The translations under genes were made by a program, and so were the position numbers. From positions 39,674,130 to 39,738,129 of the forward strand of contig JASCQW010000119.1 of assembly GCA_030264375.1 (NCBI GenBank): a stretch of DNA of 64,000 nt, in the 5' to 3' direction. The stretch comes from Carcharhinus longimanus. Its lineage: Eukaryota. This document shows, piece by piece, positions 313 through 54,405 of the stretch. How positions within the stretch are numbered: the first letter of the stretch is position 1; every line of letters begins with the position of its first letter. The notes under the pieces were generated by a model that saw only the letters and a list, made by a program, of their open reading frames with translations, did no database searches and was not told the DNA's origin.

Positions 313-684
313 TTACTTGGAGTTGATGTACTTGGTCAGTGCCTTTGTCCCCTCTGACACAACATGCTTGGCCAGTTTCCCGGACAGCAGCAGATGCTTG
401 GCAGCCTGTACCTTCTGGGAGCTAATGATGCTGCACTTGTTGTATTGGGTCAGATGGGAAGTCTCACCTGTGATGTGCTCGAAGGTGTTATTCACGAACA
501 AGTTCATAAAGCTCATGGCTTGGGAGGAGATGCTGGTGTCCAGATGAACCTGCTTCATCACTTTGTAGATAGAGCAACTCTCCTTTCAGGACCTCCCCCT
601 CTTTTTGCCACTCTTAATTGGCGGTTTCTTCTGGGCTTTCTTGCTGCCCTTCTTGGACATCTGTATTTTCTTTTCTTCAGACGT
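313..684 (-). pseudogene. Histone H2B pseudogene (orphon) in the JPH2 intron
   Basis: One frame reads (ACG)[72 protein letters not shown]. Start ATG>ACG at 684-682, in-frame TGA at 588-586, 2-codon deletion in the YIY motif, many R>H/C/Q changes. Confidence 0.93.
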
Positions 685-3776: not shown

Positions 3777-4875
3777 ATTTACTGTGCATAACACTTAGAA
3801 GTTTTGTATAAACCTTTAAAAATGATATATAGAAAAGAGTAGTCATTTGAAATATAGAGATATGTAAAGTGAAACGCGTTGCCAAGAGCGTTCTGTACAT
3901 GCTTTGATTCAGCTTCATAACTAAAACTGTATCCTTAGGCTTGGTTTTACATTTCCCCATTGAAGGCAGGGTGGGGCTCATTATTTCCAGTGCGCTGCCT
4001 GTCCACTGCATAGCCATCCATCCTCGCCCCCATCACAATCTACTAGCAGGGGTGGTGGCATCATTGAACCAATTGAAACCCTGAAAAGAACAATTAATTC
4101 CCACTTAAAGGCCTCATCCGGCCACTGCCAGGACTTCACTCGTAGACCCATGCCAAGTGGCCGACCTGGCAGGTTCCCCTACATGGACTGGTGGTATGCA
4201 GGGGAGAATGCTCTGAAATGGGGTTATTGGATGGCACCCTTCTAAGTTTGTATCCTCACTGAGTTGCCCTTGCCCATTGGACTCTCAAGTCATAGCCTTC
4301 CTTAAACCTATTGTTACAGATTCCATGATTCTCACTGTGTTCTGTAATTTTAATTATTCTTTGGTTCCATTGTACTTTCCTTGATATGCATTAGGGTTAG
4401 GGTTAGATCTGAAATGTATTGCATTTGAAGATGCGCTAACCCCAAACTGGAATGGTGGTGAATTCTTGTGGTGCACAATGCCTCTTAACATTAGAAAGCC
4501 CAGGTGCATACTAGAAATTGAAAGCTATTATTAGCAAAATCTCAACTGTATATTCATCATTCAAGACAATAGCTGATTTACTTGGTGGCCTCACAATCAG
4601 TATTTGTCATCTCTGCATTTTTGGGTGAGGAATGCTGCATGTATTGGGTTTCATCTACAAAGTATAACTGGATGATATAAAAATGTATAATTCTACAGAA
4701 GAATGTGACACAATAGGATAAATGTAATGAACTTAACTCCAGTGTAAAACCATGCTTGAAACAAGTACAGATGAGAAAATCGAGAATGGAGTGCTGCATG
4801 CAGTCTTCCTGAACAGTCCCCCTTTGTGAGTGTAGCTCATTGTAGAAATTGTTGAATTCACCATCATGATATTAT

Positions 4876-12335: not shown

Positions 12336-15032
12336 TAGGGTGTTCGTTATAGTTTGGTAGGTCTGAAGAAGCCTTTGTAGCCTTTTGTAGGTTAACTGTA
12401 AGCCTCTGAAGAGCTATTTACAAAAATACAATAAAAGGTAAAGTGAGGAGCTGTCTCTATGCTTGCTGGTACACACTGCTCTGTCCAACATCAAGCTGAC
12501 CCTAGATTTTTATCCTGTGCTCTCTTACGTTACTATGTGCATGGTACTCTACTCAGCTTCTCTGGTCCTCCACTCATTAACCCTATATACGCCAGACCCT
12601 TATACTACACATCTCTCAGCTAACATCACTGAAGCAGATTCACACTGTTGCTATTTGAAACTTTGCTGTGTTTCCTCACATGATTTGTATCTAACAGAAA
12701 TTATTCAAGGTCATTCCCTTTTATGTCTTTTAGAAGGAGAAGCAGTGCAGGAAGGAGTAAAGAAGAATGAGACAGCTTTTGAGGAGGCTGTGCATTCCCT
12801 TTTTCCACTCCATATAGGAATTATCGATTTTGTAGAACTTATATAGATCTTAGTGGGTGGTTTTGTGGCACAACTGGGGCAATGACTACCTGCTTGATTA
12901 GGCATATCTGGCCATGGTTCAGATGACTGCACATAACCTTTGTGGCCCAGGCTTGTTTCAGTCAGCCACTGGGAACAAGCACAACATCATCTAAGTGCCA
13001 CTGAGGTATGAATATATCAGGTAATTATAGACCTTTCTGGAGAGTTGAGAAATTTAACCAGATTAACACAAATGACCTCCAGACATCAGCATGGTGGGGC
13101 TACCAGTGTTCTTAATGTTGGATTTCCAAGAGCACAAGATGATACTCACATACTGTTAATGTCCTGAATGCCCAAATTGTGTTTTATTGTTACACAGCTT
13201 ATTTTATGAGCTATAGACAAAAAATTCTTCACTAATTTCACCCTTATTTACTGCCTTGTATGCATTAGTATAATATAACGTATCTTTATACTTTTTTATA
13301 CCTTTTCTTTCTTACTGACAAATAGCCATACTCATTGAATGATATGATACAGCCAATGTCCCAGACTTCTCGATCACTATTTCTGAGTATGTCCTATCTC
13401 ACAAACAAGACAGACCTACCAGAGGGTGGCAGCACATAAGATATAGTTGGGAAGGAGGGGCTAGCTTTGGGAGGCCACAACATTGACTTATGATACCATG
13501 ATGTTTATGACATTGAGTTAAACATGGGCAAGGAAACCTCCTACTGGCCATCTACAGCCCTCCCTCAGCTGATGAAAAATCATTTGGAAAGGAGCACTGA
13601 TGGTAACAAGAGTACTTCAGTATCCATCAAAAATACTGGTTTGATACCATCACTACCAGCAGAGCTGGCTGAATCCTGATAGACATACATGTCATGCCAC
13701 CATAAAAAGTCAGGAACAATTACCATACATTTAAGTATCATTAGCGCGCTTCCCCACTGTATTATCCCCTATGTAAGGAATTTCCCCCTGCAGGTGTGAC
13801 ATCACGTTGGCAGAGTTTACAAAAGGTCTGAATCAGTAAGGACCTGACAACAGGTAAGTACGGCTGCTGGAAGGAAGAGAGGGTCATGTTTGGGCACTAA
13901 CCTTGTAGTGTCAGAGTGGCTTCCATTTGGGTGTTTTGGCGTGAGGATGTGTTCCCAGAGGGGAAGGGGGGGGTGTTCCATGTCTGCTAACGGGGGCGTG
14001 GGGGGTTTCAGTTTCCATGGGGGAAAGGAATCTTATTTTATTATTTTTACTTTTAGATTGGGGAAATCTGATCTATCAGGGCTGAGGTTGCTGGTGGATG
14101 GGCTCATTCTGAGCCCCCCCTACCCACCCACTCACCCAGTCAGCATAATATTATGGATCCCATCCCTTCCGTTTTTTTCAAAGTGTTTGAAAATTTGGTG
14201 GGAATAGCTGGCAAGGTGCTGGTGGGCTGCCTCCTGCTTTTGCTGCCTGAGACAACATTGGGAAAAAAATAATAAAATTCCATCCCAAGCCACCGAGGCA
14301 TGTTGTCAGGAAGAAGTTGAATCTGACTCTGATTGGCACTCCATAGAAGTTCAGGGCCAAAGAGATAAAACAAAATGTTTCTTAGTGGGTGTGGTCACCT
14401 TGCCTTTTGCATTGTGAAGCAATTCAGAACATCTTAAAATGATATGCCGACTACTTTTCAAGATCTACATTGCACTTTTCACATTGTTTTTTAAAGATAC
14501 TGAGCTTTGGTTACTGGCCAGTTTTTTTTAAACTCTCCTGGCTCCTTGTGTGCTTTTCTAGCCTATTCCCACGCTCTCTAGCTCCAAAATACAGACATCC
14601 AAGCTTTGAAACTCAAGCGTAGCCTGCATCCAAACCTTTGCAGTCATCAATCAGATGTTTGTCATCATTCTGCTGAAGAACGTTAACAACATGGCCAAGA
14701 ATCGGCGCTACAGCAAAGGGAAGTCTGCTGTACTGCCGGGGTTGCTACTTTACTCACTCTCCTCCCTCAAACTTTCTTAATTTATCTGTTTAAGGTGCTG
14801 ACTACTGCTTGTGAAGGTTGTGTACGTGCTTGCATTTCCAGTATTTCACGCATGTGTTTATCCAAGTGTGAACAAAGGCAATGATTGTCCATCAGTCATT
14901 TCCAGAGGACATCACAGCTGAACTCACCAGCCACCAACACATGTGGACTTTCCATCAAAAGTTATTGATAATCAAGAGGGGGAAATAGAGCTGAGTTTTC
15001 ACTTTCCTGGTCCTGCTATGGATATTTTTAAC

Positions 15033-15240
15033 AGTAAAAAGTCTGACAACACCAGGTTTTAGTCCAACCTATTTATTTGATAATATTCTCACAAGCTTTC
15101 GGGTTNNNNNNNNNNNNNNNNNNNNNNNNNNNNNNNNNNNNNNNNNNNNNNNNNNNNNNNNNNNNNNNNNNNNNNNNNNNNNNNNNNNNNNNNNNNNNNN
15201 NNNNNCACAAGCTTTCGGGTTAGACCCTTCGTCAGGTGAA
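15033..15240 (-). mobile_element. Penelope-like element terminal repeat fragment
   Basis: gtctgacaacaccaggttttagtccaacctatttatttg...cacaagctttcgg, shared with 20067-20140 and 39227-39350. Confidence 0.75.
15206..15239 (-). ncRNA. Minimal type I hammerhead ribozyme motif
   Basis: Minus strand reads TCAC CTGACGA A GGGT-CTA-ACCC GAAA GC T T GTG: stem I CAC/GTG, core CUGANGA...GAAA, 4-bp stem II, palindromic AGCT stem III. Confidence 0.75.
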
Positions 15241-19080: not shown

Positions 19081-20066
19081 TTGAAGCATTATGTGGAATG
19101 GCCATTATATTCTATTTCTAGAGGTGAAACATGTGTGCCTTATCGTCTAGAAAATAAAATGGGAAGTGCAAGGGTGATCATTGGTGGAATCATAAATATC
19201 AGATGCAAACCATGCTACTTGGTTCATTAATTCCCAGTAAAAAAATGGCAATGAGGCAAGCTATGGCCTTGCTGAGTTGCCAATATAATTAATTCAATTG
19301 AATATGGAGCACTGTTGCTGCTTCAATTGTATTAATCACTTTATTGATTATGTTTAAAGACTAATTACATGAACAACTAATACTTGTTGGAGAATAACAC
19401 AGACACACATATATTTATATGCATATATTAAAATAGTTTGTAACAATGTCAACAGTTCAAAGCAACTACCATGGGAACGATTAGTTTTTATATTTGTGTC
19501 CATTTCTGGTGGCTGCATTTAGAAGTGTTTTGTCCTCCAAGAACTCAGTATACAGATCTTTTGAAAAATTGATCTGGAGCTCAGCTTTTGGACTATCCAC
19601 TTCCAGTCTGTTACTCTTAGTTCTCCAAATAGTGATCATCATGGAGAACATGCATTCATTTTGAGCATTGCTGTATGGTATGGAAAATATCCAAGAAATG
19701 ATTTTCTTTTGGGACAAATTTGACCTTGTGCACTCCATCTGTGGGAATAGTGGTGCACACTCAAACCCAGCAAGCAAATTTGCACCAGCGAATTTTGATC
19801 TTCCTGGGCCCTTGCCAGCGGAGTAGTGTGAAACAAGTAGCGGGATCACAGAAATTTTAATACTTTAGTGAGCACACCTGCTGGGAATTCCTCATTCACC
19901 GGATATTCAGCAGGCGCCAGAATACATTTTACAATGGCTCCACATAAGCGTGAACCTGGCACCTTCAACTTTGAGGGGGAGTTTGGAGGTGAGTGCTCAG
20001 GCAGCCAGCATCCCCTGGGGTGTTCACTGCTCAGGGTGCACTGGAGAGTATGTGGGGCATTCAGAT

Positions 20067-20316
20067 AAACACAGTAAGAAGTCTGACAACACCAGGTTTA
20101 AGTCCAACCGATTTATTTGATAGTAAACTCACAAGCTTTCNNNNNNNNNNNNNNNNNNNNNNNNNNNNNNNNNNNNNNNNNNNNNNNNNNNNNNNNNNNN
20201 NNNNNNNNNNNNNNNNNNNNNNNNNNNNNNNNNNNNNNNNTGGACTTAAACCTGGTGTTGTCAGACTTCTTACTGTGTTTACCCCAGTCCAACGCCGGCA
20301 TCTCCACATCATGACT
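20067..20316. mobile_element. Penelope-like insertion with inverted terminal arrangement and 10-bp TSD
   Basis: aaacacagtaagaagtctgacaacaccaggtttaagtcca (20067-20106) is exactly inverted at 20241-20280; TSD GCATTCAGAT at 20057-20066 and 20317-20326. Confidence 0.82.
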
Positions 20317-23804: not shown

Positions 23805-24512
23805 TAGAGAGGTCCCCTGAATTTTTTTTGATTAATGTTACAGAAGCTGAGTTGGATGTACAGGGTCATATATTCATGTGATACTAGAAGTGGGGGAAGC
23901 TAGGTTGTAGCAAAAAGAAACAGTTTTACCTGTGTTCAGTTGCTGGAGAGGGCTGTTTAAAAATAGAAACCTCCAAGCTGCTTTCTCTCTCTCTTTCCCT
24001 GCAAAGTCTCTCTGGAAGTTCAAGCACAATTTAAAGCAAGTATGCCTGAGTTTGCTAATTGTAATTGAAGTGGGGTATAAGTCTATGTTAAGACTATTGC
24101 TTAATTGGAACTGAAATAGTGATGTTAGACATTAGAGTTGTTTCTTTTCATGTTTAAAGATTGTTCAATGGTTAAGAGTTAAACTGCTTCATTTTGTTAG
24201 CGTTATGCTTGGACTGTGNNNNNNNNNNNNNNNNNNNNNNNNNNNNNNNNNNNNNNNNNNNNNNNNNNNNNNNNNNNNNNNNNNNNNNNNNNNNNNNNNN
24301 NNNNNNNNNNNNNNNNNNTTAAGAGTTAAACTGCTTCATTTTGTTAGCGTTATGCTTGGACTGTGTTATGAATAAAGCTTGGTTTGATAAAAAGTTCCTT
24401 AATTTATCGATGGATTTACTCCTGAGACAAAGCGTCCTTTCTTTGCGTGGGAAAATTATTGGTGTCTAGTCTGACTTCATAATATAACTTGGGTGGGGTC
24501 CAGCAACCTAAT
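23805..24512 (+). mobile_element. Probable solo LTR (Gypsy-like)
   Basis: AATAAA at 24371; the 3' end (gtctagtctgacttcataatataacttggg...cctaata) resembles the reverse complement of the 50707 LTR end. 5' boundary uncertain. Confidence 0.55.
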
Positions 24513-25320
24513 ACTAGTATTTCATCAGTGTACTAGTAAAGTCCTCCACACATAAATTAGTGAATCTGAATGTCAGCTAATGCTGCGTTTTGAACTCCAG
24601 TCCACTGAACAGAAACCCAATGCTCTCTTTGTCTCTGCAGCTAGAGTTACGAAATGCAAAACTATGTTAATATCACATGCTATTAAAAAACTTAGGATAA
24701 TAAAAGTAAAACAAAAGAAGGGAATTCTGTTTGTGAAAATATCTGTATCAAGAGGAATAAAGAAAAATTTAAAGTGTTACTGGCCTTTAAGTGTGATGTA
24801 TTTTTAAAAACTTTGATGATGTAAAACTTTGGAAGTGTTGCTGTATAGATGAAAGTCATGAAATATTGGGCTAGTTCATTAAATCTGACTACTTCACCAA
24901 AGTGACTTCCTAACTTAGAGTCAAACAATATTATTACTACAAAAACAAAACAGATATCACAGCAGTTTCCCAACATTTTGTGCCTAGAATTGACATGATA
25001 TTTGTTTGGACCACGTGATAACTTCCTGATTTCCGGCCTCAAATCATCATTGAGAAGGAAAAGCAACAGTGAGTTACATAAACTCCACTCCAGAATAGAA
25101 GAGAGTCAATAAAAACAAAATTGCAATGGAATAATGGAGATTATAACAGTGGGGCATTCTGATGCAAACATTTTATAAATGGTGTCAACTTCTTGGCATC
25201 CTTTCAGTGATATTGAGAATTACACTGATTTAGTCAAAAATTGAACATCATGCTGTTTTTATATTCCGTGCTTTAAATGTTAAACTGTCAGTTTCTAAGC
25301 ACCTTTATATTTCCTTTCAG

Positions 25321-31325: not shown

Positions 31326-31464
31326 TGTCCACAATGCCAGCGCTCACTGTCAACTTTTTAAATGGGCAAAGATCTTAGTTTTTCTTCTGTTACTGAAATG
31401 ATTATAAGATGGAACAGAAAAATACCTGGAATGGGCTCTAAATCAAAGAATTAAGTATTCAAAT

Positions 31465-34104: not shown

Positions 34105-34870
34105 TGACAGATGCATTTTTCACACGGAGATATAATTATGTCCATTTCAGCTGAGATCAGGCTAGCCAGAATGCAAGAACCATGGGTTTTGCCCAATTTT
34201 CTGGCTTTCCACAGGTGCAAAGTGCCATCGACTACACTTTGTGGCTCTCTGGCTTCTGTACAGCTCATCAATCACTTGTGATTCATTCCACTTCCCAAAG
34301 TGTTCAGTCGGTCTCCGATCACAAAAAGCATATCCTCCAGGTATCTGCTAGGTTCTGAGGCGTGTGCACAGCTCATACATCCTGAGCTACTCTCAGATCC
34401 CTGCCATTTTAGACAGTCCACAGGGGCTACAGGGTTGGCTCCTCAGGAACATGGGGTACCCACTGAGGACATGGCTGATGACGCCAGTGCGGAGGCTACA
34501 AAGTGCAGTTGAGACCAGATACAATGGGGCTCATATTGGAACTCACACTTTGGTGGAGCAGAGTATCGGGATGCTCAAATTGAGACTCTGGAGCCTAGAC
34601 TGGTCTGATGAAATCCTGCAGTACAGTCCACAGAAGGTGTCAAACATTGTGGTCACTTGCTGCCTCCTTCACGACTTGGCACTTCTACAGGAGGAAGGAA
34701 TGGCCTGAGGAGGAGATGGAGAAATAGTACGTTTCCTTGGATGAGAAGGACTTGAGGTGAAAGATGAAAAGGAGGTCCTGAAGGGTGAGGAGGTTGACCA
34801 CGAGACTATGATCATGGCCAGGTGGGGCAGATCAATTCAGGCTGTGCTTATAGCCACCCGATTCATGGAT
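34105..34870 (+). pseudogene. PIF/Harbinger DDE transposase, decayed
   Basis: GFPQVQSAIDYT; HSSYIL; GWLLRNMGYPLRTWLMTP; RYNGAH..T..LVEQSIGMLKLR..SLD; LQYSPQKVSNIVVTCCLLHDLA, all HARBI1-like motifs, with stops and deletions. Confidence 0.9.
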
Positions 34871-44809: not shown

Positions 44810-45753
44810 GTCCTGAATATCAGAAGAGACGATTACTTCAGGAATTGATAGAGAATGGGGATCATGTGGAAAATACAGAGCAGGAGCCTCCATCAATCGA
44901 GGAGCCTCCACCTACCCCTCCAGAGAGTCCTGGACTCCATGAGAAAGCTGCAACCCCACTTGAGTCATCTCCTGCTGGTACTCCTTCACCAAGTCCTTTG
45001 GAGACACCGCCAGAGGTCAGGAAAGTTAGAGGATCAAATTCCAAGATGGAGGACTCCAGCCACTTGAGTCCTGGAAACTGGAACGGAGAGCAAAATAAAA
45101 GTAACCGGTCTAGTAGCAGTCCTGGAACACCTTCTGGTTTACTGACCTTGCAAGTTGAGAACATATCGGCAGCCAACAACCGAAATCTTCCCAGGCCGTC
45201 CAGTCATCAGAGCAACAGAAGAACACCAACAAAATTGGAGGAGCAACTACCAAACAACTATGATTTGGACATAAAGCCTCTAGAAAGAATTGAAAGCAAG
45301 CCTATTACAAATCAAAAGATCAAGTCAAGAGAACCTGTCCCACCCCACCACCTGCATGATGCCAAATTCCACGAAAGCTATCACAGTTATGCTGTGCGGA
45401 CACAAGTAGGACCTCCTCCTTTAGATTTAGTGGATGATGAAGCTCCTGTCAAATTATTGCCAGTCAGGAAAGAAGAAATTCCAGCAAAACCTTCAACACC
45501 AGAGCCAAAACCAGAAGTCAAAGTAAAAAAGCCAGAACCAGAACCAAAGCCAGCGCAAGTGCAACAAACTGCACCACATCCCAAACAGGAAAAACAGTTG
45601 CAACCCCAGCCAGAATCCAGACTTCAGTCCAAGCCTGAGCCCAAGCCTGGGCTTAAATCAGTGTCAAAACCAGTGTCAAAACCAGTACCTAAGTTAGTAA
45701 CACAACCTGAAGTAACAGGGAAGGAGGTTGCAGAGGTGGCACCGTTTGATCAG
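44810..45753 (+). CDS. JPH2: Junctophilin-2, large divergent-region exon (equivalent to exon 4)
   Basis: Acceptor ctttttcag ends at 44809; donor CAG|gtgagt at 45754. Starts (G)PEYQKRRLLQELIEN and contains ESPGLHE, SPAGTP, LSPGNWNGE and YHSYAVRT, which are JPH2-type motifs. 944 nt open frame (ORF 44845..45834). Confidence 0.96.
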
Positions 45754-46697: not shown

Positions 46698-47435
46698 TGA
46701 ACGAGATCTGCAATATGTCCCAAACAGCTCTACTTGACAGCCTAGCACCAAGGCTGTTTCATCAGAATAATAGAAAGGAATATTGGCATTAGGAGGAGAA
46801 GAAAGAATCAGGAAGGCCTGAAACTTTAGTGGGTTGGCATCTGGACTGATACCCAATGCCATTTCACTTCCATTGGAAGTAAGTTCTGGGCTGGAAAGCC
46901 CAAGTTTGATCTTCCTGAACCACCTCCACTGTTAGATGGCCAAAGTTATAATAATTCTATACATCACACCTTGGGCAGTGTTATGCATGCCCCAAGTTAA
47001 CCCTTGCTCTGCCATGCACCTTTTCATTACAATGGCATGCAGGTACATAATACAACATCCTCCTTTTTTCCAACTATTTGCAATGCAGTCTTTACTTACT
47101 ATCCCTTCTCCCTCACCTCAAGTTTCTGACTTTATAACCTTGGACGGTGTTTTCCATGGTGTCTGCCATATTTTACCATTTTGTTTCCCAAATGGAACTT
47201 TCATATCCATGTTTCTCAATTTTAGCCAAGTATTTGTTTGCTATTTCATTGTCAGATCATTTGGCAAGCTTATGAATCTTTTGATTCAGCTGAATGATTT
47301 TCAGTATGTCTGAGTTATCTAGTGTTCTTCTTCAATAAATATCTTGCATTCCAGGGTCAGATTTATATTTTCCGATCACATTTCTGTCTTTTTGTTCTCT
47401 GTCTGCAGCTGGACTTTGCCTTTGTCCTTCACCTT

Positions 47436-47758
47436 GGTGGCACGGTGGTTAGCATTGCTTCCTCACAACACCAGGGACGCTGGTTCAATTCTGGCTCTGG
47501 GCGACTGTCTGTGTGGAGTTTGCATGTTTTCCCTGTGTCTGTGTGGATTTCCTCCAGATGCTCTGGTTTCCTCCCAAAATCTATAGGTGTGCAGATTAGG
47601 TTGATTGGCCATGCTAAGTTCTCTCTCTTGTCCCAAGATGTATAGGTGAGGGTATATATGTGGGGTTACAGGTATAGGGTCTGGGTATGGTGCTTTGTCG
47701 GAGAGTTGGTGCAGACTGTACGGACACATGGCCTCCTGCACTGTAAGGATTTGATGTG
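47436..47758 (+). mobile_element. V-SINE (HE1-like), full length
   Basis: Head ggtggcacggtggttagcattgc, B-box ggttcaattc, V core and tail. Confidence 0.88.
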
Positions 47759-48178
47759 GTTTCACTGTTGGCCAGGTCTGTGTCTGGGGAAGTCTTAATC
47801 TGTTTCAGTTCTGTAACCGTGCTACCCATGGCTTCATTATCCATTCGCAGCATTGAAAGTTCTCTCGCTTTTCATTTCAATTATTCCTCTTTTCCATTCA
47901 ATTGCTTCTTCAGCTCTTCAGTCTGTTTCTTGTAGCTGTTGGCTTCCTTTTGGAGTATGGAACAATGCTGAGTCCATTCTGCCAACTGGTTCTTCAGTTT
48001 GTTCAGTCATGTAAAATTCATTTTGCGTCTCTTCGTGATTTTCCAGTGGAGCAAACTTTGAGTTGAAGGATGAAATAAAAGCAAAATACTGATGATGTTG
48101 TGGATCTGAAATAAAAAGAGAATTCTGGATGAACTCAGCAGGGCTGGCAGCATCTGTCGAGAGATAATCAGACTTAAT

Positions 48179-48304
48179 GGTCAGGATTTTAAGGCCACAC
48201 TCGTGCTGAAACCATAAAATCCCTCCCGAGGTCAATGAACTTTCCCATTGTCCACCCCTCATCCATTCTGATTCCCATGGTGGGTGGAGCAGTAAAATTC
48301 CAGC
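48179..48304. mobile_element. Short MITE, GGGCNGRATTYT-type TIR family
   Basis: ggtcaggattttaag ... gtaaaattccagc; internal aaatccctcccgaggtcaatg shared with the 16430, 52539 and 57485 copies. Confidence 0.65.
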
Positions 48305-49339
48305 AATATTTCGAGTCCCTATCACCCTTCCACAGAACAGCTCTGTTAACTTGTTTATCTCCCCACAATTGCTGCCAGCCCTACTGAGTTTATCCAGCAT
48401 TTTCATTTTATTTGACTTGAGGGATTCTTGTAGCATGCGAAGGTCTGTCAACAGGTTTTCCTTTTCTTTGCGAGGCTCATGCGTCATCTTACATTTTTCA
48501 GTAATTCAACAAAGTCTCCTTTAATTTATTCTGCTGTGCTTCATTCTGCTGTTCAAAACACTCTTCATTTCTTCATGTTGCTCAATGGTGACATTCCTTT
48601 TGCATTTGATCTTGAAAGACAATCAGCTGTGCTTTCAGCTATTTATTTTCTTGTTGGACCTTTTGCCAACTCACTCCAGACTCCAGTGCGTCGTCTCGTT
48701 NNNNNNNNNNCAGCTTGAATCTTGTGCTTCAAATCTTCCAGTTCAGCAGTGATCCAAATATTTACCTGTGGAAAACTTTAATTTACATTTAATGTGTTTT
48801 GTTTTTCTCAGTTACTTCACATAGCTTTCTTCCATTCACAGCCATCTGTACACTCTGCACTGCCATCTGCTGTTGCAATTTGAATCTGTGACAGCACTTT
48901 CAAGAAACTTTTGTTTTGCTCAGGTTGTCTGCAGCTGTCCGTTTTCTTTGTTCTGAGTTCCCTGCACTTTTCAAATGCTGGTGAGCTCCCCAGCAATCAT
49001 GGCTGCTTTTGTTTATAACTTTCAATACTGCAGCAATTTCTTTGCAGAGCTGCAAAGACCAGTTTCAGGATGATTCTTTTGTGTTTTTTCAAGTGTGCAG
49101 GAACTTTAGATGTTAGACATCCCATGCTTCAAGAGTTTTAGCAGGAGTGTGTTTTTTCAAAGTTACAAGCTGTTACTAACTCTGCAGCACTTTTCCATAA
49201 GGAAGCCAGGAGCTCAACATCTCTCCCAAGCTCTGTAGGCCCTTCTCTTTACTCTGCAAGGTTTTTTTCTCTCAAACCTTTGACTCTGCCAACCAATTTT
49301 TATATAACTATTTTTAACTTCAGTGCCACAAGACCACCA

Positions 49340-50012
49340 TTTTTTTAATTCATTCATGTGACGTGCGTGTTCAACTTGATATTCCCTAGCCATTTCAGAG
49401 AGCATTTGAGAGTCAAACACATTCCTGTGGATCTGGAGTCACATATAGGCCAGACCACATAAGGATGGCAGATTTCCTTTCCTAAAGGACATTGGTGAAT
49501 CAGATGGGTTTTTATGATCACCTTTAGACATTTGATTCCAGATGTTTAATTGGCAACACACTGGCACAATGGTTAGCTCTGCTGCCTCACAGCTCCAGGA
49601 AGCGGAGTTCAATTCCGGCCTTGGGTGGCTGTATGGAATTTACGCATTCTCCCCATCATGCCTTTGTGGGTTTCCTCTGGGTACTCCAGTTGCCTCCCAT
49701 TGTCTAAAGATGTGCAGGTTAGGTGGATTGGCCATGGTAAATTGCTGTTTAGTGTCCCAAGATGTGTAGGTTAGATGGAATAGCCATGGTAAATGTGGGG
49801 TTACAGGGATGGGGAGAGGGCCTGGGTAAAATACTCTCTCAGAAAGTCAGTGAAAACTAGATGGGCCAAATGGCCTCTTCTGCACTGTAGGGATTCTAGG
49901 ATTCTATGAATTTAAATGTCACCATCTGCCATGGTGGGATTTGAGCCTGGGTCCCCACAGCATTATCTTGGACCACTTGTCCAGTAACAATACCAGTATG
50001 CCACTGCCTCAC
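49340..50012 (-). mobile_element. tRNA-derived SINE with CR1-like tail, hosting a nested V-SINE
   Basis: Minus-strand head gaggcagtggcata..ggtattgttactggac...ggctcaaatcccaccatggcagatggtg; body continues at 49340-49550. Confidence 0.7.
49552..49908 (+). mobile_element. V-SINE nested in another SINE
   Basis: ctggcacaatggttagctctgctgcctcacagc..., V core, tail ctgcactgtagggattctaggattctatg. Confidence 0.88.
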
Positions 50013-51042
50013 CCCTGCTGTAATCTGCTGAGCCCTGGGACAGCCATCTCTTCTGCAATTTAAGTACAACTTTGTTTTTGTAACTTTAATCCTATCTTGG
50101 AAACTGACCAGGTTCTTTGACTGTTGTGTTAATCAGGATTTTGTAAATTTTGTTCTTGTTCAGCTGTCTTCATGATTTAACCAGGTTTATCTTTTTCTTT
50201 TACTCTCAATACTTGGGGGTCTTGCTTTGGATGCCCAATGAGGAATCTGGTGGATTCCTCAACATCTAGGTCTGTAGTGAAGTTTCTTCAATTGTTTCTT
50301 CAATTTTTCTTCTTAGGCACACATTTCTCTGGTCTGGCTTCAGCTGGTTTTAATTTTTCATGCTGTGCGATACTGTTCTGAATTCATCATTTCAAATGCC
50401 ACCTTTCATACCACTGCTGATGTTCAGCATGTTGTGTCCCACCACTGATGTAATATCTTTTAGCAGCTTCAGTGCTGCCAACCACGTTATAATAGGGTTT
50501 TACTGCTGTGCACCAAATTGCATTTTCGATTTATCCATGGTGTCTCATTTATGAGGATCTTGATGCTTGTATGTTTAAGTACAAATTATTGTTGATCTTG
50601 AACTATTTATAGATCCCATCCAGATATAGTTATGTAGGGAGCTGCTTCTCCATACACGCTACTTTGAGTGTTCTATCTGAGTCTAAAACCATGAGATTCC
50701 ATACATTGTTAGGGACCAGATCAGAAACCCCAAGGTATATTGTGAAGTTAGACTGGACCCCAGCTATTTTTTGCTTTCGGCATTTGTGTGAAGATATGGT
50801 GTTTCATTCCATGAGTGATTCAATTGACACACCAGGAAGCTTTAGTTAATTATAATGAATGAATTGGCTTAACTTTTACTGATTGAAAGACTTAAACTTG
50901 ACAAGATGTAATTCTTAACTCTAACTTATCTCTATTCCAATTTAAGCAATATTCCTCATAGGCTTAAAAACCTCTTCAAAAATCAGTTAGCCAACAACAC
51001 ATGCTTACTTGCTTTTTACTTGTAATTAGTCATGGAGCCTTT

Positions 51043-51318
51043 GAACACATAAGAACATAAGAACATAAGAAATAGGAGCAGGAGTAGGCCAACTAGCCCT
51101 TCGAGCCTGCCCCGCCATTCAATNNNNNNNNNNNNNNNNNNNNNNNNNNNNNNNNNNNNNNNNNNNNNNNNNNNNNNNNNNNNNNNNNNNNNNNNNNNNN
51201 NNNNNNNNNNNNNNNNNNNNNNNTCCTCTGCACTCCCTCCAAGGCCAAAATATCCTTGCGTAAGTGCGGCGCCCAAAACTGCACACAGTACTCCAGCTGC
51301 AGCCTCACCAATGCCTTG
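51043..51318 (-). mobile_element. CR1 fragment (spans a gap)
   Basis: [31 protein letters not shown]; (CTTATGTT)n tail. Confidence 0.9.
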
Positions 51319-51590
51319 GAAAGGGATACATGCCATCTGACACTTAAACAGCAGCCTCTAGAATATGAGAGAAAAACACCTCTTGCTTCTTTCAGGTTCA
51401 AGCAGAAACTAAACTTCTTCCCTGTAAGCTTAGCTCCATCCATTCACATGACTCTTTCTCTTGTCAACCAACCTAATTAAACACTGTTCTGAAACCCCTA
51501 AAATAGACACAAATGCATTAACTCGGATTAAAACAAACACCCCATTATCTCAGAGCAACTATTCTGCATTCTCAGCATGCGGGCTGTCTT

Positions 51591-51892
51591 CATAGAATCT
51601 TTACAGTGCAGGAGGAGGCCATGCGGCCCATCAAGACTGCACCAACCACCATCCCACCCAGGTCCTATTTCCGTAAGCCTATATTAACCCTGCTAATCTT
51701 CTGATAGTAGGTCCAATTTAACATGGCCAGTCAACCTATCCTGCACATCTTTGGACTGTGGCAGGAAACCAGAGCACCTGGAGGAATCCCATGCAGATAC
51801 AGGAATGTGCAAACTCCACACAGACAATGTCCCAAGGCTGGAATTGAACCCTGGTCCCTGGTGCTGTGAGGCAGCAGTGCTAATCTGCACCA
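51591..51892 (-). mobile_element. V-SINE
   Basis: Reverse complement of head, V core and tail. Confidence 0.88.
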
Positions 51893-52538
51893 TGTAAATA
51901 GAGCTGACTTCTAAACATACCCTTCACAAGAATCATGATATAAATACATTTCTTAAAGGCACAGCATCATCACAACATCATACCATGGGGACTGCTAGTC
52001 CAGTCCTACATTAACCTTTGCTCTGCCATGCATCTTTACTACTACAGCATGCCACACAACTTTGTTGTAACATTAAATAACCACCTTGCCTTCTTGGAAC
52101 TGCTAGCATGCCTTTGTTAAACTGTAAATAGACAATCTGCAATCAGGTTTGAAATTTTTAAAAATGTTCACATCTCACCTGATCCAAACCCATCCATTTT
52201 TGGGTAGGTTTAATTCTCATGCCATGTTAAGTGGATCTCTGGGAATGCCACAGCAGTGTTGTTAGCAAGCAGGGTAAGCAGTCAATCATAATTGAAGTAT
52301 TTTCAAAGACAGCAAGTCAGAAAATTAAAAGCACTAATTAACCTTCACTTTATATTTAATTTTTCAAATAGTAAAGTAAATGATCATGATTTGACTCAAA
52401 TAGAAGCTAAAATATCAATGTAAATTTTAAGGAAGTATTTGAAAAATATGTAAAATTTATCATAGTGGAGAAATTTGACATTCCACAAATACAAAATTAC
52501 AAAACATACAAATATTTATAAAATAGTTATAAAATATT

Positions 52539-54324: not shown

Positions 54325-54405
54325 GGACCTAATACTATTATGATTGCCATGGTCATTCTGCTGAACATCGGCCTAGCCATCTTGTTTGTCCATTTACTCA
54401 CATGA
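54325..54405 (+). CDS. JPH2: Junctophilin-2, last coding exon: C-terminal ER/SR transmembrane anchor
   Basis: Acceptor tttatttcag ends at 54324; encodes GPNTIMIAMVILLNIGLAILFVHLLT* (TGA 54403-54405), nearly identical to the JPH2 C-terminus. A donor gag|gtaaga follows at 54418. Confidence 0.97.
   Translation, partial: GPNTIMIAMVILLNIGLAILFVHLLT

Follow-up and report, generated by a model that had tools for sequence, protein, structure and literature searches.

Non-autonomous long terminal repeat (LTR) elements of the TRIM and LARD types have short direct repeats and a purine tract and encode no enzymes. LTR elements also duplicate host genes: the main text of Tan et al. (2016, PMC5131818) describes LTR-mediated retrocopies, including HERV-K/FAM8A1 and zebrafish cases, gives five of seven zebrafish retrocopies as LTR-made and describes secondary retroposition; the word 'shark' does not occur in it. 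Zebrafish Bhikhari/crestin (Bik-1, Bik-2) and chicken ENS-1, as presented in the relevant part of PMC12067270, are non-autonomous LTR elements without pol. Here we analyze a remnant at positions 46950-52071 of a 64,000-nucleotide stretch from the shark Carcharhinus longimanus (assembly GCA_030264375.1, contig JASCQW010000119.1, positions 39,674,130 to 39,738,129, forward strand), called the window below, to which all coordinates refer. The remnant carries a fragment of the host gene UACA between two direct repeats, and we slightly favor the explanation that it stems from a mobile family specific to sharks, of which it would be an old and dead copy with a chimeric cargo and an LTR vehicle.

With TRIM and LARD elements the shark unit shares the short direct repeats, the purine tract and the lack of enzymes; it differs in that a primer-binding site (PBS) and a 5-bp target-site duplication (TSD) were not found and in its gene-derived cargo of 2.3 kb. 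Like the retrocopies in the main text of PMC5131818, it is a partial host-gene duplicate with chimeric junctions, no poly(A) and flanking repeats, and its family shares with them further copying after a single capture. Those retrocopies, however, are young, lie in recognizable LTR families and have microsimilarity at their junctions, whereas the shark unit is old (d about 0.15-0.2), occurs in two shark orders and has two structural types. The nearest layout is that of Bik-1 and Bik-2; these and ENS-1 have one coding region that contains a coiled coil and are moved in trans, as we propose for the shark unit. PMC12067270 describes what they encode as a capsid-bearing Gag and their copies as young and intact; the shark unit, a dead copy, has its coiled coil from host UACA, and no capsid family was detected in it. 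LTR-mediated gene capture is known as a kind, and the shark unit appears to behave like a retrocopy that went on moving. An LTR content of 11.7% is given for the catshark in the part of PMC11979771 on this subject, and UACA is absent from the main text of bioRxiv 10.1101/2021.11.26.470093, as far as that text is available. Literature searches at the level of titles and abstracts listed no paper on such a shark family, though repeat libraries and the transposable-element table of PMC11979771 may list it anonymously.

A first-pass annotation of the window, made from the sequence alone, had proposed about 2.3 kb of decayed coding sequence between the repeats, resembling UACA, ANKRD24 or RAI14, with motifs of the type P-L-E-x-H-E-E and without recognizable gag or pol. 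Counted without the younger inserts, the coding-like sequence between the repeats of about 100 bp is 2,308 nt long, and the motif is present as PLENHEE. A back-translated nhmmer profile of five shark UACAs, run on the window, found four colinear blocks with E-values from 2e-38 to 4e-8, compared to 1.8 for the best hit in the reversed-window control:

47803-47914, minus strand: UACA residues 1174-1211 (E 2e-12; 26/37 identical to Carcharodon UACA)
47902-48070, minus strand: UACA residues 971-1028 (E 4e-26), joined in frame to residue ~1174
48414-48698, minus strand: UACA residues 878-974 (E 2e-38; 51/91 and 57/90 identical)
48701-48710, no strand: 10-N assembly gap, reached by the UACA match on both sides
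48711-48829, minus strand: UACA residues 694-734 (E 4e-8)

Together, 672 of the 2,308 nt match shark UACA (residues 694-734, 878-1028 and 1174-1211), and it is for these that the description as UACA-like holds, the remainder having no demonstrable UACA match. Since the missing residues 735-877 coincide with the 10-N gap, a deletion is indistinguishable here from missing sequence.

A phmmer search with one whole frame against 1.84 billion representatives yielded 26 hits, four to the coiled coil of the remnant and 22 to nested short interspersed elements (SINEs). A profile built from the four coiled-coil hits and the window piece matched eight of 7,999 scored candidates: five shark UACAs (E 6e-47 to 2e-31), one Carcharodon gene model for major histocompatibility complex class I (MHC-I) and two mammalian UACAs. 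Seven of the eight are thus named UACA, which identifies the parent; RAI14 and ANKRD24, which had also been considered, are not among them. The lack of recognizable gag and pol was corroborated, as no gag, pol, reverse transcriptase or integrase family of Pfam was found in 11 minus-strand and nine plus-strand frame translations, and no such protein within the remnant appeared among the 26 phmmer hits. Homology is significant and colinear to UACA, not to a transposable-element protein. A word-based homologue search with frame 47062-48066 retained none of 2,154 candidates, Pfam searches with the internal frames and four relatives gave only generic coiled-coil families below the cut-offs, and a PDB search gave nothing meaningful. 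ESM Atlas searches with P0001 and the P0005 tail (see below) returned generic coiled coils of no consistent family, the three Rfam matches (E 0.3-0.99) were taken as chance, ARAGORN called no genes, and none of 51 pattern matches in GTDB genomes was confirmed. Over 159 aligned columns the window copy has 58-67% amino-acid identity to host UACA of sharks (P0027-P0031), with the same block order. Unlike host UACA, it has no ankyrin repeats and nothing C-terminal of residue 1211; it lacks an internal part, ends in a foreign tail and is interrupted by stops and frameshifts. The capture of UACA is real.

The window copy has five relatives in the database, for which the evidence is at the protein level: P0001 (LOC144678955 of the basking shark Cetorhinus maximus, annotated as a gene), P0002, P0004, P0005 (scyTo_0001063 of the cloudy catshark Scyliorhinus torazame) and P0032 (LOC121291255 of the white shark, Carcharodon). 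In P0032, about 50 copy-like residues stand between two MHC-I domains; it lies on a 115.8-Mb contig, the Carcharodon UACA parent on a different one of 46.5 Mb. A sharp junction from UACA to the tail is found in five of the six copies, the sixth not reaching this point. In the four database copies that reach residue 1210, identity to UACA is 13-24/30 before the junction and 0-2/25 after it; three of these four match the P0005 tail at 10-17/25, and the window copy has this tail too. Further, five of the six copies (window, P0001, P0002, P0004, P0032) jump in frame from residue ~1030 to ~1174, over ~140 residues, and in the protein sequence the two ends of this deletion share only an LK dipeptide. 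P0005 is without the deletion and keeps upstream UACA residues, which places the fusion before the deletion. The two lamniform copies, P0001 and P0032, are 48% identical and belong to different subgroups, which makes them paralogues. A multi-copy family had been considered possible from the sequence of the window, and shared junctions at several loci, such as the MHC-I locus and the intron in the window, bear this out. Both structural types, deleted and undeleted, are represented by decayed copies, which occupy more than one locus in two orders of sharks, and the existence of a multi-locus chimeric family is highly probable. Genome annotation already includes copies of it in the form of spurious or fused gene models (LOC144678955, scyTo_0001063, LOC121291255).

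Two details of the relatives may be recorded here. The P0032 model fuses two MHC class I genes via two repeat-derived pieces (residues ~345-445): the UACA-copy piece and, immediately preceding it, a stretch that has no Pfam hit and no match in the window. This stretch presumably resembles the N-terminus of a Gypsy gag and could be either an insertion of its own or a hint at what the vehicle was. At the site corresponding to 47913-47890, four of the five copies that reach it (window, P0001, P0004, P0005) have glycine; four shark UACAs have glutamate there and Scyliorhinus UACA has glycine (compare P0029), so that the glycine could be the ancestral state or a case of homoplasy.

To place the copies relative to their parent, a tree was computed from 159 UACA-aligned columns in 13 rows, with the junctions unused and RAI14, ANKRD24, ANKRD35 and orectolobiform UACA left out. 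One branch (support 78/93) separates the six copies from every host UACA, and the copies are nested in a group (95/96) with the UACAs of Carcharodon, Mustelus and Scyliorhinus. In approximately unbiased (AU) tests of groups named after the first tree had been seen, a grouping of the four galeomorph UACAs without the copies was rejected (p-AU 0.007), as were pairings of the window copy with the UACA of Scyliorhinus, Mustelus or Carcharodon (p-AU 0.0001-0.002). The shared junctions and the grouping of the copies apart from host UACA together indicate one capture followed by spread, with at least three copy lineages descending from it. The capture is probably older than the split between lamniform and carcharhiniform sharks, transfer between sharks being a conceivable alternative.

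Under a neutral codon model, the window copy is at a distance of 0.19-0.24 from single shark UACAs and of 0.17 from P0001; when the three closest UACAs are mixed, the value is 0.15 (0.12-0.19). It has four stops in 177 codons, compared to 3.5-4.3 expected at d 0.15-0.2 for a slightly different set of blocks. The copy decayed neutrally and collected younger insertions. Shark DNA decays slowly, so that an old capture can still be read. The family would be a case of host-gene capture and subsequent spread in cartilaginous fish that is old enough for two orders and still readable, and its stepwise junctions put the events in order, with fusion first and deletion second.

Beyond the UACA blocks, the internal sequence comprises four coding-like parts:

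47752-47802, minus strand: first part of the non-UACA tail, which continues the frame of the UACA piece beyond the junction that follows UACA residue 1210
47072-47434, minus strand: distal non-UACA coding-like tail, of which 47432-47244 matches P0005 residues 59-120
48830-49335, minus strand: coding-like segment with the same purine skew as the UACA part
50020-50538, minus strand: coding-like 5' segment, starting at an ATG in CACCATGG context (50538); 61% purine

The match of 47432-47244 to residues 59-120 of catshark P0005 has a score of 86, compared to a shuffled maximum of 59, and the distal tail (47072-47434) has no UACA match. The cargo is a chimera: a stretch of the UACA coiled coil, at least residues 694-1211, continues without a change of frame into a coiled-coil-like tail that is not UACA. 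In the window copy neither junction breaks the frame, with 83 codons in one frame; this has a one-in-nine chance of arising by accident, and the copy was not picked for openness. For the 5' segment, one of 100 shuffles reached the coiled-coil composition score. Attempts to extend the UACA match were rejected. Read as the UACA C-terminus, which would have demonstrated a loss of introns, 47434-47062 scored 35-40, within the shuffles, and in the tail test 92-446 of 500 shuffles were as good. For 50538-50020 as residues 293-398, scores compared to shuffled maxima were 60 and 59 with Carcharodon, 50 and 64 with Mustelus and 47 and 58 with Heterodontus; there was no nhmmer hit, and a further test gave 13.8 against 12.0-13.7. 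A weak possible match of 49092-48830 to residues 611-694 was not significant alone. The tail and the ATG region (47150-47221 and 50498-50550) share an 11-nt word and a weak similarity of 39/49, which 13 of 300 shuffles equaled and which is probably due to chance.

The repeats that flank this cargo, and the sequences next to them, are as follows:

46950-47057, minus strand: 3' direct repeat, candidate 3' LTR of ~100 bp; core 46961-47040, TGTTGTA start at 47057
47058-47071, minus strand: run of 14 purines, candidate polypurine tract (PPT), abutting TGTTGTA of the 3' repeat
50539-50698, minus strand: leader or LTR extension, with TATAAATA at 50611 and two CA/TGG sites (50693, 50539)
50699-50706 and 51975-52071, minus strand: 5' direct repeat, split by a younger solo LTR

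Both repeats described in the first-pass annotation were recovered. Their cores (46961-47040 and 51975-52053) are identical at 59 of 78 positions, with a Kimura two-parameter (K2P) distance of 0.30 and a score that none of 2000 shuffles reached; nhmmer gives E 4e-7 between the two repeats. The match resumes beyond the solo-LTR site into 50684-50706 (16/23 identical, 18/2000 shuffles as good), and no third copy was found within the window. Equally, the polypurine tract lies directly before TGTTGTA on the minus strand (47071-47058), one of three minus-strand sites in the 64 kb with at least 14 purines followed by TGT; of the two repeats, only the 3' one has a purine tract abutting its TG. On the minus strand, purines make up 58-65% of the six coding-like internal segments, 54% of the leader and 46-49% of four flanks, on a baseline of 50 +/- 6% in 444 bins outside the unit. 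Since the purine skew ends where the repeats stand, these bound the unit, but since the minus strand of the unit is purine-rich, the tract is weaker evidence than it appears. The distance of 0.30 between the repeats is about twice the decay from the parent (0.15-0.21), as expected if they were identical at insertion, though independent old repeats would give the same value. The unit thus has two of the features of an LTR element, direct terminal repeats that bound it and a polypurine tract before the 3' repeat. The TATA-like TATAAATA is present at 50611 as reported, outside the repeated part.

Several observations weigh against an LTR-borne family. The purine tract stands 17 nt from the start of the repeat homology, and the 17-25 nt that separate the TG starts from the core show no significant similarity (1011/2000 shuffles as good); the TG starts at 47057 and 52071 lie outside the significant core, and the CA at 50693-50692 of the right repeat aligns to TA in the left. 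An LTR running to about 50540, as first proposed, was not upheld: nothing to the left of the left repeat corresponds to the extension 50698-50540 (258/300 and 48/300 shuffles as good), so that the 264-bp LTR ending at 50540 was discarded. The polyadenylation-type signal reported there was not recovered either, AATAAA and ATTAAA being absent from the minus strand of 50530-50706, from which decay could have removed them. No exact TSD of 4-6 bp exists among 200 end pairs (8 x 25 candidates), although, with repeats that are 74-76% identical, we estimate that only about 30% of 4-bp TSDs would have survived. No PBS was recognized at the two CA/TGG sites by eye against tRNA ends. Linkage of repeat and cargo is seen at one locus only, the window copy, and ~70% of the internal sequence matches nothing found. 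As for the family, it is about five residues that document the deletion in P0032, the support of the copy clade (78/93) falls short of the 95/80 mark, and less than a third of the tree columns are filled in three copies. An apparent similarity upstream of the purine tract was dropped as not significant alone (1284/2000 shuffles). What remains of the LTR assignment are the two repeats and the purine tract, set against the lack of a TSD, a PBS and a polyadenylation signal and a 3' copy of only ~100 bp. That the unit belongs to the LTR elements is likely but unproven, and an LTR element is in our view a reasonably probable vehicle.

If so, the vehicle would be a non-autonomous LTR retroelement whose LTRs are short (~100 bp) or 3'-truncated. 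Reverse transcriptase could have switched template from the element RNA to a co-packaged UACA mRNA and back, producing the junctions and later the ~140-residue deletion. The chimeric RNA would have kept the LTRs and the purine tract, and an autonomous partner would have recopied it in trans before lamniform and carcharhiniform sharks diverged. We infer this RNA route after the model described for LTR-mediated retrocopies in PMC5131818. The large UACA exon presumably has its start near residue 408, in sharks as well; the matched part would then probably lie in this one exon, so that it demonstrates neither an RNA step nor a loss of introns. For the human protein, residue 1234 is placed in exon 16 in the relevant part of PMC12881209.

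It is doubtful that the element itself made a protein, for which the UACA coil would have been taken into a single frame kept open by selection during fusion, deletion and spread. The corresponding layout would be TATA, ATG in good context, N-terminus, UACA coil, tail and purine tract, and the in-frame junctions of the window copy, downstream of the TATA and the ATG, count for this reading at one in nine only. If it were true, a host cytoskeletal coil would serve a retroelement, for instance as the multimerizing part of a Gag-like protein, and some copies, such as Cetorhinus LOC144678955, might still be expressed. If the chimeric frame was under selection, genes would have passed from the host to the element, opposite to the direction that domestication usually takes.

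Among other explanations, a chimeric, UACA-derived master gene of sharks could have given rise to processed copies through the machinery of long interspersed elements (LINEs), the repeats being an unrelated small repeat or a local duplication. The in-frame state of both junctions over 83 codons, the annotation of P0001 as a gene, the lack of TSD and PBS and the abundance of LINE-derived SINEs in the window would all agree with this. Yet there is no poly(A), the longest 3' A-run being 6 nt and lying inside the purine tract (tails decay at such an age), and the repeats sit where the compositional skew ends and nowhere else in the 64 kb. No intact long tail-bearing protein was found among the 7,999 scored candidates, which is weak evidence. 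We therefore regard a master gene as unlikely.

Capture and spread of part of the large UACA exon could also have occurred at the DNA level, by a Helitron-like or Pack-type element or by segmental duplication. Non-autonomous DNA elements often carry internal deletions, as seen here, and the probable restriction of the match to one exon fits as well. We consider this improbable, as the unit has no terminal inverted repeats (277/500 shuffles as good) and direct repeats with a purine tract would not be expected. Still less probable is another direct-repeat retroelement as carrier, with Penelope pseudo-LTRs or the split repeats of DIRS/Ngaro; short, unequal direct repeats without TSD or PBS suit these classes, but the TG start with its abutting purine tract does not, and the scanned frames contain no reverse transcriptase, endonuclease or recombinase family. 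Finally, a single old insertion inherited in several sharks, without any family, would allow P0001 to be the orthologue of the window copy (neutral distance 0.17), but is contradicted by the location of P0032 between MHC-I domains instead of in a junctophilin intron, by the undeleted P0005 and by the two lamniform copies in separate subgroups at 48% identity, and is very hard to maintain.

The favored LTR-borne unit has been broken up by younger insertions:

47435-47751, plus strand: SINE in the tail, with homologous copies across the window; P0005 is continuous without it
48071-48410, no strand: inverted-repeat element with a repeat inside that resembles a miniature inverted-repeat transposable element (MITE); P0001 is continuous without it
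49340-50015 (ends approximate), plus strand: SINE-in-SINE insertion
50707-51974, no strand: solo LTR of another family, with TG..CA ends and an ACAT target duplication, itself holding two insertions

We take the first of these to be a V-SINE and the second to be Penelope-like. As P0001 and P0005 continue without interruption across two of the insertion sites, the nesting described in the first-pass annotation is confirmed there. The arms of the inverted-repeat element (48109-48170 and 48352-48413) are 84% alike, and the insert (48057-48425) has a 15-bp target duplication with two mismatches; relatives of the arms occur at 31461 and 44175, relatives of the inner MITE-like repeat at 4871, 16421, 52544 and 57503. 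The solo LTR was likewise verified, with ACAT on both sides and a second copy of its family at 24002-24513 on the minus strand, in opposite orientation (137/180 identical over the best block, 24002-24193). This second copy extends across an N gap whose 47-nt edge is duplicated.

Within the host gene, the unit occupies the last intron in antisense orientation, between two exons:

44810-45753, plus strand: host exon of 944 nt with AG/GT ends and an open frame, upstream of the unit
54325-54405, plus strand: terminal transmembrane exon

A large exon and a terminal transmembrane exon thus flank the unit, in accordance with the proposed location in a JPH2 intron; the name JPH2 is presumptive, and Pfam gave no family for either exon. 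The large exon includes a repetitive Pro/Lys-rich extension (45480-45720) with a 12-nt tandem repeat (45655-45686).

Elsewhere in the window, a short frame at 313-585 (minus strand) presumably represents a decayed histone H2B, as a processed pseudogene, and a frame at 34352-34708 (plus strand) presumably a fragment of a Harbinger/HARBI1-type transposase. Near-identical short repeats at 15031-15105 and 20066-20281, with perfect inverted arms of 41 nt, lie beside 100-N gaps and probably belong to a young repeat family that broke the assembly.

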